64,000 nt of DNA from Torpedo marmorata. Taxonomy: Eukaryota. A program made the position numbers and the translations under genes. The notes below the pieces were generated by a model. That model did no database searches, was not told the origin of the DNA, and saw only the letters and a program-made list of their open reading frames with translations. The DNA lies in contig OZ360241.1 of the NCBI GenBank assembly GCA_977017645.1, forward strand, positions 20,336,001 through 20,400,000, given 5' to 3'. Shown in pieces: positions 805 through 61,742 of this stretch; position 1 is the stretch's first letter, and the number at the start of each line of letters is the position of its first letter.

Positions 805-2210
805 ATTATTGAACCACACAGTAATGTTTACAGGAAGTGTTCACTATAAAACACAGTGATGTTTACTGTATGAGTAACATTTTGAGATTTACTGGGATTC
901 TCCTGTAGAAAGTGCCAATGTTTACAGCATTCTCTATAAATCACATGGTGAAGTTTACAAGGCTGCTTCTGCATAAATCACATGTTTATACAGGCTCTCC
1001 TGTCTAAATCTTCTTCCCTGTATAAAGCAATATCCAGTGTTAGCAGAGACTCTCCTACACAAAGTAATTGTCATTATTTACAGTGACTCCTCTCCACATA
1101 GTGTGTGCCAATGATTAGAGATCTCCCCGCACATGTATCATATCACTATCACATATCTTGTGTAAATCACGTATGTGATTTCAAGACTCCACTGTGTAAC
1201 ATACATGGTGTTTTTAGTGTAATTGCATTGCACTGTTACAGTGACACCCTGGATAAATCACATGCTAATGTTGACAGGATTCTGAGATATTAGTGCAATA
1301 TCAGATTTCTACCCTTTTGGGACTGTTTACACACACTCCTCTCTTTTAAACACTTGGCAGGTATTCATAGAGGCTCCTCTGCATAAATTACAAGGGACTG
1401 TTTACAGGCACTTCCCTGGAGAAGTAATTCCTTATTTTTTAAAGCCATTTCTCTGCATAAATCACATAGTGATGTTTCCTGTGACTCCCATGTATAAATC
1501 ATATGGTGTTGTTGACATAGACTCTACTGCATAAATTACACGCCAGTGTTCACAGACTGCGCTGTGTAAATTACACACCTATGTTCACAGAAACTACACG
1601 GTGTAAATTACACGCCAGTGTTCACAGACTGCACTGTGTAAATTAAACACCTATGTTCACAGAGACTACACGGTGTAAATTACACGCCAGTGTTCACAGA
1701 CTGCGCTGTGTAAATTACACACCTATGTTCACAGAAACTACACGGTGTAAATTACACGCCAGTGTTCACAGACTGCGCTGTGTAAATTACACACCTATGT
1801 TCACAGAGACTACACGGTGTAAATTACACGCCAGTGTTCACAGACTGCGCTGTGTAAATTACACACCTATGTTCACAGAGACTACACGGTGTAAATTACA
1901 CGCCAGTGTTCACAGACTGCGCTGTGTAAATTACACACCTATGTTCACAGAGACTACATGGTGTAAATTACACGCCAGTGTTCACAGACTGCGCTGTGTA
2001 AATTACACACCTATGTTCACAGAGACTACACGGTGTAAATTACACGCCAGTGTTCACAGACTGCGCTGTGTAAATTACACACCTATGTTCACAGAGACTA
2101 CACGGTGTAAATTACACGCCAGTGTTCACAGAGACTAAACTAAAGTTAGAGTTTACAAGAGCTTCTCTGTATGAATCCCGTTAATGTTTATAGGGACTCT
2201 TGTATAAATA
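805..2210. repeat. Old degenerate ~36-37-bp minisatellite surrounding the 72-bp array
   Basis: Recurring TAAATCACA..GTGATGTTTACAG..ACTCT..TG motif at about 36-nt spacing (e.g. near 845, 935, 972, 1383, 1457, 1494, 2170). Confidence 0.7.
1532..2137. repeat. 72-bp tandem repeat (about 8.4 copies), each unit a dimer of 35- and 37-bp subunits
   Basis: Unit GTAAATTACACGCCAGTGTTCACAGACTGCGCTGT+GTAAATTACACACCTATGTTCACAGAGACTACACGGT; copies are nearly identical. Confidence 0.95.
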
Positions 2211-10724: not shown

Positions 10725-11205
10725 CACGGTTGGCGTAGCGATTAGTGCAACGCCGTTACAGCGCCAGTGATCGGGACCGGGGTTTGAATCCCGTGCCGTC
10801 CGTAAGGAGTTTGTACGTTCTCCCCGTGTCTGCGTGGGTTTCCTCCTGAGGCTCCGGTTTCCTCCCACCGTTTGAAACATACCAGAAAGTGTAGGTTAAT
10901 TGAGTGTAATTGGGCAGCATGTGTTCGTGGGCTGAAAGGGCCTGTTACCATGCTGTATGTCTAAATAAATTTATAAATTAAAGGGCAGCACATTTAGTGT
11001 AGCGGATAGCACACACTATCACAGCGCCAGCAACCGGGGTTCGAATTCGCTGCTGTCTGCAAGGGCTTTGTACTTTCTCCCCTTGACATGTGTGGATTTC
11101 CTCTGGGTACTCCATTTTCCTCCCACCCTCCAAAACGTAAGGTGTTTATAGGTTAATTGGTGTATTTGAGTGGCATGGGCTCATGGGCTGGAAGGGCCTG
11201 TTACT
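10725..11205 (+). mobile_element. Two tandem HE1-like SINE copies (about 10725-10970 and 10983-11205)
   Basis: Each copy has a tRNA head, V-domain and tail; they differ as subfamily variants. Confidence 0.85.
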
Positions 11206-11911
11206 GGTATGATCACATTAATGGGGCTGTATTATAGACCACCCAATGGTCAGCAAGAATTGGAGGAGTAAATCTGCAGGGAGCTAGCAGACAGCTGCAG
11301 GAAACATAAAGTTGTGATAGTAGGTGATTTTAACTTTCCACATATTGACTGGGACTCCCATACTGTAAAAGGGCTTGATGGGTTAGAGCTTGTCAAATGT
11401 GTTCAAGAAAGTTTTATAAATCAATATATTGAGGTACCAACTAGAGAGAGTGCAATACTAGATCCTCTATTAGGGAACGAGACAGGACAGGTGACAGGGG
11501 AACATTTTTGGTGATCATAATGCAATTAGTTTCAAGATAATTATGGATAAGGATAGATCTGATCCTTGGATTAAGATTCTAAAGTGGAGAAAGGCCAATT
11601 TTGATGAAATGCGAAAGGATCTAGGAAGCTTGGATTGGGCTAGGTTGTTTTCGGGCAAGGATGTGCTCGGTAAGTGAAAGGCCTTCAAATGTGAAATTCT
11701 GAGAGAACAGAGTTTGTATGTTTCTGTTAAGGATTAAAGGCAAAATTAACAGGCAACCTTGGTTTTCGAGGGATATTGGGGATCTGGTTAAGAAGAAGAG
11801 AGATGTGTGTAGCAGGTATGGGCAACAAGAAGCAAATGAGGTACTCAAGGAGTATAAAAAATGCAGGAATAAAATTAAGAGGGAAATAAAGAAGGTGAGA
11901 AGAAGACATTT

Positions 11912-12105
11912 TAAAAAAAAATTAGACATACAGCATGGTAACAGGCCATTTCGGCCCACGAGTCCGTGCCTCCCAATTTACACCCAATTAACCTACACCC
12001 CCGGTACGTTTTGTACGGTGGGAGGAAAATGGAGCCCCGGGGAAAACCCACGCAGACACGGGGAGAATGTACCAACTCCTTACAGACAGTGCGGGATTCG
12101 ACCCC
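11912..12105 (-). mobile_element. HE1-like SINE, 5'-truncated
   Basis: V-domain and tail on the minus strand. Confidence 0.8.
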
Positions 12106-12527
12106 ACCCTTTTTGGCCCAAAAATCGCATATTTTCCGTATGACCCGTGTAAAAGTTGACCCTCCTATTTTTGGCCCCGACCGCTTGCCCATCCGAGCTC
12201 CCGATGCCCCAACCGCGGATCCTCGGCCACCCGACCACCGGAGCCCCCGATGCCCTGACCACGGACCCTCGCCCCGGCCGCCCGCCCACCAGAGCTCCCG
12301 GCGCCCTGGCCATAGACTCTCTCCTAGGCCCCGGCCGCTCGCCCATCCAAGCTCCCGACACCCTGAACACGGACTTACCACCTGGTCCCGGCCATCCGAG
12401 CTCCCGATGCCTTGAATGACCAAGGTACTTACCGCGGTCAAAAGTATGACCAGTGTAAAAGCGACCCCCTCAAATTTGACCCACAAAATTGGTCCAGAAA
12501 ACTCAACTATTACACTAGTATATATGG
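12100..12527. mobile_element. Left-truncated mariner/pogo-type MITE with GC-rich internal repeats
   Basis: Right end ..TTACACTAGTATATATGG|TA resembles TA|CCGTATATACTCG-type TIRs. Subterminal GTGTAAAAG..GACCC repeats; internal CCCGGCCG..CCGAGCTCCC units. Confidence 0.55.
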
Positions 12528-13226
12528 TACTCCAAATGGGGCTTCACCAACGTTTTATACAACTGCAACATGACCACCCATCCTCCTCTTTCTCCATCTC
12601 TTTTCTGTGCTGAAGATCAGGGGGCAGGGGCTGTGTCCCCATCCCTGCCACAGCATGGAGAACAACATAAACGGAGTGTGAGTCTCTCACTGGATTGCAA
12701 CATAGGGCATTTTGAATGCTAACTGAAGTGAAAGATTTAAATATTTTCATGGTATTTTCCAGTGATCTGCAAGCATTCCCCCTCATAAATTCGATAGATG
12801 ATGCTATAGCTTTATCCCTTCACTCCACCCTGACCAACCTGGAGAATGACGCCTCATATGCTATGCCGCTGTTCATTGACTTCAACTCGCTCCTGTTCAC
12901 GCTACTGACCCATGACTGCATCGCCAGATCCAGCTCCAACATCAAGTTTGCAGATGACACAACAGTAGTTGGCCTCATCAGCAACATCAATGAGTCGCAC
13001 TACAGAGGTGGAAAATCTCGTGAAATGGTGTGAGAGTAACAACCTGAGTATCAACGTGGACAAGGCAAAGGAGATGCTCGTGGACTTCAGGAGGACCAGG
13101 AATGATCACCCTCCACTACACATCAACAGCTTTGTAGTAGAGAAAGTAGAGAGCACCAAGTTCCTTGGAGTTTACTTAACTAGTGACCTATCGGGGACAC
13201 TCAACATCTCCTCACTTGTCATGAAA

Positions 13227-13426
13227 TGCTGCCCAATTTACACCCAATTAACCTACACCCCCGGTACATTTTGAACGGTGGGAGGAAACCGGAGCCCCGG
13301 GGAAAACCCACACAGACACGGGGAGAACATACAAACTCCTTACAGACAGCGCGGGATTCGAACCCCGGTCCCGATCGCTGGCGCTGTAAAGGCGTTGCGC
13401 TAACCGCTATGACAACCATGCGCCCT
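13227..13426 (-). mobile_element. tRNA-derived V-domain SINE (HE1-like), abutting the 5S copy, 3' tail missing
   Basis: A-box-like TAGCGGTTAG, B-box GGTTCGAATCC and V-domain GTTTGTATGTTCTCCCCGTGTCTG..GGTTTCCTCCCAC. Confidence 0.85.
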
Positions 13427-13430
13427 AAAT

Positions 13431-13549
13431 AGCCTATGGCACCTGGCATTCCCAGTCGGTCTCCCATCCAAGTACTGACCAGGCCTGAGCCTGCTTAGCT
13501 TCCGAGATCAGACGAGATCGGGCGTTTTCAGGCTAATATGGTCGTAGGC
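13431..13549 (-). rRNA. Dispersed full-length 5S rRNA copy (probable pseudogene or head of a composite SINE)
   Basis: Reverse complement is GCCTACGACCATATTAGCCTGAAAACGCCCGATCTCGTCTGATCTCGGAAGCTAAGCAGGCTCAGGCCTGGTCAGTACTTGGATGGGAGACCGACTGGGAATGCCAGGTGCCATAGGCT (119 nt). Box A and box C are intact. Single copy, no T4 terminator. Confidence 0.93.
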
Positions 13550-16500
13550 AATCTCCCTCCCCCCCCCCCCCCCACATCGACGTGATCTACCGGGATCGTT
13601 GTCTGAAGAGGGCGTGTAAAATCATTGAGGGCCCCTTCCACCCTGCACACAGCATCTTTCAGCTGCTCCCATTGGGGAAGAGATACAGGAGTATCAAAGC
13701 CAGCACCACCAGGCTGAGGAACAGCTTCTTCCCACGGGCAGTGAGAATGCTAAACGACCAAAGGAACTGCTCACACTAACCATCCGAGACTCTCATATTC
13801 AGGGAATATTTATTTATTTATGTACTATAGATGAAATACTTGTCCTGCATATGTATTGTTTGTCTGTATGTGTGTTATGTCTGGTTGTGTGTCTGCATGT
13901 TTTGCACTGAGGATCGGAGAATGCTGTTTCGTCGGATTGTACGTACAATCAGATGACAATAAACTTGGCTTGACTTGACTTAAATACATCAGTGCAAAGT
14001 TAGGTACACAATCTGGAGAATATGCCCACTATTACAGTGCCAGTTTGAATCCGCCACTGTTTGTTAGGAGTTTGTATGTTCTCCCCGTGACCTGGCGTAT
14101 GGGGTTAGTTGGTTAATTGGTCATATGGGTATATTTAGGTGGCGTGGGCTTGTGGGCCGGGAGGGCTGTTACCATGCTGCATCTCTAAAATTAAAATTAA
14201 AATTACTTGCAATTCAATAATATCTATTTGATATACAATTAGCTTTGGGCTAACTATGGTGCTAGAACACCGTGCCTCATTTTATGTACAGTTGGCAGAG
14301 TTTCCGGAGCTTGCTTTGGAGAGATTCAGGGAATGTTCTGCACTGTCGTGGGGCTCTACTTTAACTGCACCATCCTTCTCCTACCTGCAAATATACCGTT
14401 TATGAACCATTTCCACTTTAAAGGCCTCTCGTGATTCAATACACTTTTGTTTGTGAAGCTTTGATTTAATTTACCAAAACCAGATCTCCTTTTATCCCAT
14501 TGAAATTATCCCTTCTCCAATTGATTGCACTTGCTTCATTGGTCAGGGCATCGAGTAGTGGAGCAGGGATGGCATGATACAATTGTACAAGATGTTGGTG
14601 AGGCCACATTTAGAGTACTGTGCACTCATCTAGTCATCAAGCGATAGGAGAGATATAATTAAGCTGGAAAGGGTACAGAAAAGATTCACAAGAACGTTAC
14701 GGGGACTGGTGGGATTCAGTTATGAGATTAGGCTGGGACATTTCTCTCTGGAGTGTAGGAGGCTGAGGGAAGACCTTATGGGTGCGTGAGGAGCATGGAT
14801 AAATAGTTATGGTCTGTTTCCCAGGGCAAGGAAATCTAAAACTAGAGGGCAAAGATTTAAGATGAGAGGGGTAAGATTTAAAGGGGATGTGAGGGGCACT
14901 TTGTTCACACAGAAGTTGGTGGGTTTATGGAACAAGCTGTCAGAGGAAGTGGCAGAGGCAGATAAAATTGTAACATTTAAAATACATTTGGACAGGAACA
15001 TGGATTGGAAAGTTTAGAAGGATATGGACAGATGCAGGCAAATGGGACTAGCCTGGGTACGTAACTTGGTCGGCATGAACAAGTTGGGCTGAAATGGCCT
15101 GTTTCTGTGCTGTAAAACTCCATGGCTCTACGATTGACTCCAAAACAATCTATACATTTGCTGATGACACCATTGTTGTTGGCTGAATAATGGGAAATAA
15201 TGAGTCAAAAATCTGGTTCTGATGTCAGAACAACAATCTTGTTCTCAACATCAGCAAGTCCAAAGAGCTTATTGTGGAAATTCTGCCTGGCCTGCAGGAA
15301 AAAGAATCTCGGGGTTGTATGTGATGTCATGTATGTCCTCTGACAATAAACCTGAACTTTGAACGTTAATCTTTCAACTTTAGGAAGGGGAGGCCGAGAC
15401 ACCTGTCCTCATTGACAGGATGGTGATGGAGAGGGTTAGTACTTTCCAACTTCCTTGGACCTCATATATCGGAGGACAACACATTGAAATAATCGTGAAA
15501 AATGCATTCCAATGCTTCAATTTTCTAAGATGTTCTGAGGAGATTTGGTATGTTGTTGAATATTCTATCCAACCTCTACAGATGCCCTGTGGAAAGTATA
15601 CTGACTGGTTGCATCATAGCCTGGTTTAGAAACTCAAGTGCCCAGGAATACAGAAGGGTGCAAAAAATGGCAAACCTAGCTAAGTCCATCATGGGCACTG
15701 AATTCTTGACTATTGAACACATCTATGTGAGGCAGCCAACTTCATAAAGAATCCACATCACCCTGGTCACAGCCTCTTCTCACTACTACCTTCAGTTATT
15801 TATTTATAGGTTGCATTGAAGCCCAACTTGGCATTTAATATTTATTATCTCTTTTTCTGTCTTGCATTTGTGGGAATTTAATGTTTTACTATTGTAATTG
15901 GTGTATCTTATGTACCCGTTTGGCTGCAGCAAGAAAGAATTTTGGTGTATTTGTACATTGTACTTACATGTATGACAATAACCTCACATTAAACATTGAA
16001 ATAGATATCAGAGAATTACGTTTATTTGCAGATGGAGATTTTCTCAAGATTGTACCAATGCTGAAAACCTGTCATTAAATGTTTTTCTTCAGATGGTATG
16101 AGCTTGCAAACACAGATTACCTCAGCTACACTAAGTTTTTGGAACAAGGTACAGGTGCATTCTGTTTGTATTTATTCTCTCTTTTTAATTCAATTAAGTC
16201 TATACTTGAAGTTTTTTTTTTACAAGGTTTTGTGTTTTTTTTTACAAAGTACCTGTTTTGCTGCAACAAGTAAGAATTTTGGTGCATATGTACAATGTAT
16301 ATGACAGTAAACTCATTATCATTGCACAATCATGGACTGATACTCTGTGAGCAATCCCTCAGCTGGTCAGCAGTGATTCCTTGGCTGAGGACCATAAAGG
16401 ATCAATTATTATCCTGATCTTGCTGTCGTGTGTCACCCAGATCTATTTGACCTTGAGAACATCCGTGATATTGTTTTAATATGGTGGCACCAGTTTGAAG

Positions 16501-60119: not shown

Positions 60120-61742
60120 TGAAAATGGCGGCACATATGGTTGCAGCGGCCACTTGTGCTCCAAACAAAGGTACAATCTCTCGTTCTATTCAGCTTGTCT
60201 ATAATCAGAAAATACTGCTAAATGTAAGGAACAGTAAAACCTGTTGGTCCACCAAGTTCAAGGCCCAGATCATGAAGGTACTGTGCGAATATGACTTAAT
60301 GAAGGCAGTGAGCCCTAACACCAAGCTGAAGCTTGGAGAAGAGGTCATCGGAAATGGTGGGCAAGGAAGCAGAAGTGCGGTAAGCATGCTGTCATTCATG
60401 CAAGACTCCAAGCGAATTCGTCCAGGCCCGTGCTCCCGACGATTATACTTGCAAATGTTCGATCTGAAAAATAAACTGGATTACCTGCAGCTGAATCTGA
60501 GCTGGAGGGAACTGGGGGGCTGCAGACTCTGGTAATTACAGAAACATGGATCCAGGACTCCACTCCGGATTCAGCCATCCAGCTAGCAATGTGTTTGCTT
60601 TGATTGTTTAAGTTCATTCCCCAGAGGCTGGTGGAGAAGCTGTCCTTAATGGGACTCAACACCCCTCTCTGTAACTTGATTCTGGACTTCTGAATGGAAA
60701 GACCTCAGTCTGTCTGGGTTGGTAGCAGAGCGTCGAGCACCGTCACACTGAGCACTGGCGCACCTCAGGGCTGTGTGCTCAGCCCACTCCTGTTCATGCT
60801 ACTGACCCACGACTGCATCGTCAGATCCAGCTCCAACAGTGTCATCAAGTTTGCAGATGACACAACAGTACTTGGCCTCATCAGCAACAACGATGGGTCG
60901 CACTACAGAGAAGAGGTGGACAATCTTGTGAAATGGTGCAAGAGTAATGACCTGAGTCTCAACATGGACAAGACGAAGGAGATGATCATGGACTTCAGGA
61001 GGAATAGGAATGACCACCCTCCACTACGCATCAACAACTCTGCAGTAGAGAGTGGAGAGCACCAAGTTCCTTGGAGTTCACTTTACTAGTGACCTATCGT
61101 GGACACTCAACATCTCCTCACTTGTCAGGAAGGCACAACAGCGATTGCACTTCCTGAGAAGTCTAAAGCGGGAAAGGCTTCCAGCCACCATTATGTCAAC
61201 CTTCTATAGGAACTCTATCGAGAGCGTCCTGGCCGGCTGCATCACAGTGTGGTACGGTTGCTGCAGAGAAATGGGTTGGAGGTCAATCCACAGGACCTTA
61301 GGAGTGGCAGAGAGTCTCCCCCCACCACCCCCCCCCCACCCTGCATCGAAGTGATCTACCGGGATTGTTGTCGGAAGAGGGTGCGCAAAATCATTGAGGT
61401 TCCCTTCCACCCTGCACACAGCATCTTTCAGCTGCTCCCATTGGGGAAAAGATACAGGAGTATCAGAGCCAGCACCACCAGGCTGAGGAACAACTTCTTC
61501 CCACGGGCAGTGAGAATGCTGAACGACCAAAGAAACTGCTCTCACTAACCATCCGAGACTCTCATATTCATGGGACAATATTTATTTATTTATATGAATA
61601 TTTGTCCTGCATATGTATTGCTTGTCTGTATGTGTGTCGTGTCTGATTGTGTGTCTGCAATGTTTTGCACCGAGGATTGGAGAACGCTGTTTCCTCAGGT
61701 TGCACTTGTACAATCAGATGACAATAAACTTGAACTTGATTT
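60120..61742 (+). mobile_element. Rex1-type LINE, internally deleted, with (AACTTG)n tail
   Basis: GAPQGCVLSP, KFADD and HPAHSIFQLLP..RYRSI motifs; 5' part has endonuclease remnants (ITETW). Confidence 0.85.

Follow-up and report, generated by a model that had tools for sequence, protein, structure and literature searches.

When a complete copy of a small cellular RNA is found joined head-to-tail to a SINE, the arrangement could reflect a composite SINE family, a one-off template-switch chimera, or one insertion nested in another. An earlier note on the DNA studied here proposed one of the first two explanations for a 5S rRNA copy fused to a tRNA-type SINE, and set the third against them. Here, we ask which of these the locus represents.

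Anatomy of the locus

The window, by which we mean the whole 64,000-nt stretch of DNA that was analysed (G000:C54:20336001-20400000, from a 6.2-Gb genome), contains a 5S copy, after which ATTTA and a SINE head starting at 13425 come on the same strand, just as had been described. The parts of this unit and of its surroundings are as follows.

13431..13549, minus strand: 5S rRNA retrocopy, full-length, positions 1-119 (Rfam RF00001, 99.3 bits, E 1.8e-20, whole model)
13426..13430, minus strand: linker ATTTA, 5 nt, without a run of four T (sequence, array gene ends, linker spectrum of the 35 chimeras described below)
13227..13425, minus strand: tRNA-type SINE, presumably HE1-like, positions 1 to ~204 of ~249, 3' tail missing (91% to a full copy; alignment)
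13404..13414, minus strand: box A-like motif in the SINE head, differing at one position from the state usual in the family (sequence, alignment)
13354..13364, minus strand: box B-like motif in the SINE head, GGTTCGAATCC (sequence)
12780..13225, plus strand: host LINE remnant, left part, degenerate reverse-transcriptase region (translation, window copies; RVT_1 E 0.015, below cut-off)
13550..13980, plus strand: right-hand part of the host LINE remnant, with the ORF end and 3' tail (88% identity with another copy, at 61325-61742)

The 5S copy (13549-13431, minus strand) is the sole RNA family match by Rfam within the window. It begins exactly at +1, and the flank upstream is host LINE in place of spacer DNA. 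The copy had been called an exact 119-nt 5S; the length stands, with a match to the whole Rfam model, and the exactness does not, since identity to a unit of the tandem 5S array is 94.1%. Five differences, at positions 8, 14, 94, 103 and 113, separate it from the majority of chimeric copies. Internal boxes A and C, which span positions 50-64 and 80-97 of 5S, had been described as intact. Box A is unchanged, and box C carries one difference (94), in its 3' part. The helix II pair that had been read as a compensatory change is indeed paired in the Rfam alignment, and it is an ordinary older 5S state of this lineage, common to solo dispersed copies.

The SINE is counted as tRNA-type from its box A-like and box B-like motifs only, which were judged against what we take to be the box A and box B consensus; ARAGORN found no tRNA anywhere in the window. 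It belongs to the subfamily with a 6-nt insertion, and nine further BLAST matches of the SINE lie inside the window. The linker is likely a remnant of the 5S 3' oligo-U followed by an untemplated or leader A, possibly with one T mutated. Pol III read-through of this copy is plausible, its longest T run being 3. The two halves have diverged to a similar degree, by 4.2% and 3.3%.

The whole unit lies antisense within a LINE remnant that is presumably Rex/Babar-like. On the SINE side, ~180 bp of host LINE is absent between the left and right parts, an estimate drawn from nine alignments with other copies (three belong to a single locus), in which the interval is 190-236 bases when intact and 23 in the window. 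The SINE itself breaks off around position 200-204 and lacks the last ~45 nt of the family, and we infer that a single later deletion likely removed both the SINE tail and the missing host LINE. With its tail missing, the copy is probably dead as a retroposon, with or without Pol III read-through. Beside the 5S start, the host LINE holds a C-rich run (13553-13574, ~16 C) that is longer than in most other LINE copies and similar to that at 61325.

Fusions of 5S to the SINE recur across the genome

As the earlier note had proposed, we compared the junction with the rest of the genome. Among 40 scored matches to an 81-nt junction query, 17 were dispersed loci in which 5S runs into the SINE, and the remaining 23 fell in the 5S tandem array:

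G000:C25:86.04-86.65 Mb (L018-L030, L175-L201): 5S tandem array, ~106-111 main units

An exact junction pattern was found 10 times (reversed control, 0). Sampling by an internal 5S motif, which does not depend on the downstream side and selects the older 5S state, returned 31 matches. Of these, 23, including the window copy, were same-strand SINE fusions; the others comprised three array-derived copies and five solo copies truncated at the 3' end, two of which have clear TSDs. The expectation by chance is ~7e-4 SINE fusions per 5S copy, or ~0.02 for 31 copies, based on 39 random stretches (390 kb) that held 25 SINE matches, 18 of them with the head. Fusion of 5S to the SINE is far beyond chance.

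In all, at least 35 distinct dispersed 5S-SINE chimeras were recovered genome-wide (36 rows, L060 being counted twice). The overlap between two samples (17 and 22 loci, 5 in common) gives an estimate of about 75, which is biased low, so there are probably more. The idea of a one-off chimera is thus not borne out, as junctions of this type are present at 35 or more loci; what survives of it is template switching, which is supported as a recurrent process.

A 5S 3'-end anchor gave 131 matches, of which 106 continue into array spacer and 10 are known chimeras that carry the anchor. Of three non-array loci fetched in this way, one (L172) joins 5S to a CR1-like LINE truncated at its 5' end, one belongs to another family, and one (L174) is a solo 5S copy with an intact 3' end. 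The stronger proposition, that every 3'-intact dispersed 5S is fused to the SINE, is ruled out by L172 and L174, none of the three fetched loci being a SINE fusion.

A SINE that inserted into the T-rich 3' end of an older 5S pseudogene would also leave 5S and SINE side by side. Such nesting would suit a unit that has no TSD bracketing it as a whole, and L174 provides an example of the 3'-intact solo 5S that it needs as a target. It is nevertheless extremely improbable, given that all fusions examined are head-to-tail on one strand and that their number exceeds the chance expectation so greatly. Nor does a duplicate of the 5S end or linker follow the SINE tail, where the only matches were AT-rich ones of 6-9 nt or distant ones; a TSD inside the 5S tail, the sign of nesting that had been named beforehand, was searched for there and none was convincing. 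The corresponding search on whole chimeras (29 chimera rows and 17 monomers) also gave only short AT-rich or distant matches, and because monomers lack TSDs as well, this test is uninformative. We regard insertion of the chimera in one step as the putative course of events.

Chimeras without a common fused ancestor

Read-through by Pol III of a terminator-less 5S+tRNA master copy, or of a few such copies, followed by amplification, would result in a low-copy composite SINE family. Several observations are in keeping with such a family: the dispersal of at least 35 copies, the lack of four T in 25 of 31 junctions (from which putative Pol III read-through of most chimeras is possible), two 5S states common to the chimeras and unlike most array units, and the fact that another chimera is the nearest neighbour of 17 of 31 chimeric SINE halves. 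Amplification from one master predicts that the SINE halves group as a clade with a uniform junction. We placed 31 of the 35 chimeric SINE halves in a tree with 33 monomeric ones, leaving out matches that span <170 nt and duplicate loci, and treating the 6-nt indel marker as gaps.

The labels chimera and monomer change 21 times on this tree, compared with a shuffled mean of 21.5, and a constraint that places the chimeric halves in a single clade lowers the log-likelihood by 107 units (p-AU 0.00026). Resolution of the tree is poor, with 7 of 61 branches starred. One pair of chimeras, L004 and L035, groups at 98/86, yet their linkers differ. Both indel subfamilies are represented among chimeras (18 with the 6-nt insertion, 10 without) as among monomers (14 and 17). 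The mean distance among chimeric halves is 0.153 and the closest pair stands at 0.068. Linkers are heterogeneous, with 22 different strings among 24 positive linkers, typically a short run of T with A or G after it; by itself this variety is weak evidence, since T runs slip and the copies are 7-8% diverged.

The 5S halves lead in the same direction. All chimeric 5S copies carry two states (positions 35 and 61) that are absent from 24 of 27 array units. The same states occur in solo dispersed 5S copies, so they mark an older cellular gene and no master copy. Further non-CpG changes in 5S are common to at most 5 of the 35 chimeras. No source-copy substitution that would distinguish the 5S head from cellular RNA is found by majority among the 35, and we saw no amplified lineage among the sampled chimeras.

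On these comparisons, the chimeras have neither a single fused ancestor nor the common descent expected of a composite SINE family, the SINE halves being polyphyletic. As a general explanation, the family proposed by the earlier note is largely refuted, and we consider it very unlikely. Several features of a chimeric retrocopy are found: an RNA copy without gene flanks, joined directly to a retroposon on the same strand, independent origins, and a 3' partner that is far commoner as a monomer.

U6 and a 5S-headed SINE as points of comparison

The same SINE head is also attached to the 3' end of U6 in this genome, with 15 exact junction matches (control, 0). All 10 sites that were fetched are true fusions, in which U6 is mostly 5'-truncated:

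L157-L166 and five more sites: U6-SINE fusions

U6 has no internal promoter of the 5S kind, and its presence in the same fusions is a further argument against a composite family. The 30 best-scoring U6 copies (L115-L144) present a different picture: all are solo and A-tailed, 28 of 30 have a TSD-like repeat and none is fused, so that this top-scored sample hid the fusions that were later found by the junction pattern. Near-perfect full-length U6 copies number at least 48, and two of those sampled, L137 and L138, are identical over both compared flanks and likely represent an assembly duplicate. A-tailed U6 retrocopies would point to recent L1-type activity. The occurrence of U6-SINE fusions beside solo A-tailed U6 copies with TSDs indicates that two routes act in the genome.

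What an amplified family looks like in this genome is illustrated by a true 5S-headed SINE (SINE3-type), which we met in the random sample and which has no copy within the window:

L086:6846-6595 (minus strand), L097:4217-4455 (plus strand), L104:2155-1915 (minus strand) and L145-L156: 5S-headed SINE copies

It is young and ~250 nt long, with diagnostic substitutions in the head and an (ACCTTT)n tail. A 32-nt motif of it has 8,484 exact matches, the mean distance among copies is 0.065, and the junction is near-identical in 11 of 12 copies. Both this family and the chimeras place a 5S-derived head on a retroposon body, but the family stands apart by its own head diagnostics, its single junction, another tail and >8,000 exact matches to its motif. 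It is a separate family and no descendant of them, and its uniformity is a measure of how little the chimeras resemble a family. The two together raise the question of why most fusions never spread, because dozens of unamplified intermediates exist beside a successful 5S-headed family.

The 5S-headed SINE also bears on nesting, as an abundant repeat that ends in T. Its T-rich tail precedes the SINE head 6 times, compared with ~17 expected (an expectation that rests on 3 motif matches in 390 kb). T-rich ends thus do not attract the SINE.

How the fusions may form

The SINE has ~400,000 copies, as estimated from 25 matches in 390 kb, and head-bearing monomers number ~290,000 (from 18 in 390 kb). 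We presume it to be HE1-like, the comparison having been made without an HE1 consensus. The SINE tail is 80% identical over 61 nt to the 3' end of a LINE at window 15053-15113, which we take to be CR1-like from protein motifs in its translation; Pfam on three LINE fragments gave one weak RVT_1 match, below cut-off, and nothing else. In sharks and rays, the HE1 V-SINE pairs with the HER1 LINE (PMC3747384), and, as far as that paper was drawn on, the SINE here is like it in its tRNA-type head, its abundance, and a tail common to the 3' end of a LINE.

The junctions have a characteristic geometry. The 5S parts begin at or after +1 and lack array spacer, many of them being 5'-truncated. Chimeric SINE halves align from position 1-3 in 28 of 35 cases, and three more begin at the head by eye. 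Most junctions connect the 5S 3' end to the first SINE base across 0-12 variable bases, and some chimeras have no linker or are joined inside either partner. Three junctions lie inside the SINE, and two of these share 3-4 nt at the joint (L041, L046).

We judge it probable, at about 0.75, that each chimera arose when a CR1-like reverse transcriptase finished the SINE RNA and jumped to the 3' end of cellular 5S rRNA. The partner enzyme would prime at the LINE-derived tail of the SINE, copy to the SINE 5' end and run off there. It may then jump end to end onto 5S or U6, with help from the oligo-U at their 3' ends and from untemplated bases, and the small RNA would be copied in part or whole before integration. 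By this route the SINE would carry 5S along, and we infer that such hitch-hiking is a main way in which the 5S 3' end is retrocopied here, because 5S has no tail of the kind required by a stringent LINE. Against this reading, the ages of the two halves correlate weakly across 28 copies (Spearman 0.36, p 0.056), and divergence is slightly greater in SINE than in 5S halves (8.2% vs 6.9%, Wilcoxon p 0.025).

Alternatively, 5S or U6 RNA may have been ligated to SINE RNA before reverse transcription and the product retroposed via the SINE tail, again recurrently and without a family. Ligation is given as one U6/L1 route in the portions drawn on of a recent preprint (bioRxiv 10.1101/2025.02.02.635956), and it would account for the end-to-end geometry and for the participation of U6. 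It accounts less well for linkers that often hold purines of neither parent, or for the three junctions inside the SINE and the bases shared at two of them. RtcB joins a 3' end that bears a cyclic phosphate to a 5'-OH, whereas the terminus of 5S is a 3'-OH and Pol III SINE RNA begins with a triphosphate. Template jumping and RNA ligation are indistinguishable from sequence; we consider ligation unlikely.

It is also conceivable, if improbable, that routine capture of 5S rRNA onto the tRNA SINE by a CR1-type reverse transcriptase has left the chimeras as a standing pool of terminator-less, double-promoter proto-SINEs, at least one of which has been read through by Pol III and has seeded a small daughter lineage. 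If true, the birth of a 5S+tRNA composite SINE would have been caught in progress. The minimum-energy fold of the fused RNA has 52 cross pairs between 5S and SINE and 13 within 5S, values obtained without a shuffle control or a native 5S fold, and we base no conclusion on them. The 42S particles of oocytes, which store 5S with tRNA in teleosts and Xenopus (PMC4178482, in the part consulted), might bring 5S and SINE RNA together, an idea that we leave as speculation because U6 fuses too.

Relation to known chimeras and composite SINEs

The portions of published work on which we draw describe close counterparts. In platypus, U6 occurs fused to L2 and to Mon-1, and in anole to AnolisSINE2 (Doucet et al. 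2015, PMC4476161). As in the U6-Mon-1 and U6-AnolisSINE2 cases, a small Pol III RNA is joined here head-to-tail with the SINE of a stringent LINE, in many independent copies in which the small RNA is often 5'-truncated and TSDs are short or absent. Unlike them, the loci here have 5S as a donor besides U6 and a CR1-like partner, and most of the SINE halves have a complete 5' end. The same paper, as far as it was drawn on, left template switching by CR1 undecided on the basis of one gapped turkey copy, and our data likely add a CR1-clade case to the LINE clades that switch templates.

In mammals, 5S/LINE-1, U6/LINE-1 and U6/Alu chimeras are known (bioRxiv 10.1101/2025.02.02.635956; PMC4494074), and these share with the present loci the recurrent fusion of small RNAs to retroposons through retrotransposition. 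The preprint weighs ligation vs switching for the 5S/L1 chimeras. In the parts considered, human 5S/L1 copies are frequently antisense and 3'-truncated, whereas here the 5S is in sense orientation, mostly 3'-complete, and set on the first base of the SINE. The truncation of mammalian 5S near position 90 is likewise seen here, in solo copies with TSDs (L066, L068).

Vertebrate SINE promoters made of 5S plus partial tRNA have been proposed to stem from a switch from SINE to 5S (PMC4824008), and composite 5S+tRNA SINE heads are treated in this source and in PMC4494074, both of which cite Nishihara 2006 in the sections used. Composite families of this kind are amplified from a master copy, whereas the loci here are independent and unamplified and resemble the proposed precursor step. 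Criteria that separate families from sums of chimeras are discussed in PMC4494074. SINEBase, in the portion used, counts a family from at least 100 interspersed copies (PMC3531059), compared with the 35 recovered and ~75 estimated here. Our comparison with print also covers parts of PMC5786205, PMC5499810, PMC7245038 and PMC2746220. The literature search found no publication that describes 5S-SINE chimeras from cartilaginous fish; entries in Repbase, Dfam and SINEBase and supplements lay outside its scope. The locus appears to work like published small-RNA/SINE chimeric retrocopies, and as such it is a known kind of accident, neither a new family nor a new mechanism.

Other 5S copies and additional observations

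The array on C25 contains 106 exact units, each ending in five T and followed by spacer. Its main units alternate with a diverged second 5S variant that often lacks a normal 3' end. The main units differ at two positions from all examined dispersed retrocopies, and both later homogenisation of the array and an unassembled second class of genes would fit this difference. A genome search with a 45-nt pattern for a second tandem array with the older 5S states found four dispersed matches only.

In L066 and L068, the 5S is truncated at position 90 and 15-16-nt TSDs overlap the truncation point, as in the tailless retropseudogene type. In L172 (G000:C1:105571622-105574639, minus strand), 5S positions 3-119 are joined directly to a 5'-truncated CR1-like ORF, which begins in the endonuclease region, and the sequence upstream is unrelated. 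We regard this locus as a candidate 5S-CR1 chimera.

Several arrangements of the SINE itself were also noted. Two copies of different subfamilies stand in direct head-to-tail tandem at window 10725-11210. At L035, L077:60-90 and L106, the SINE is preceded by a short duplicate of its own first ~20 bases, which in L035 lies inside the chimera junction. At window 12105-12530, a 5'-truncated SINE adjoins a GC-rich element, which contains a tandem repeat of 57 bp (12224-12393). A second tandem repeat, with a 72-bp period, 8.3 copies and 98% match, occupies window 1532-2132.
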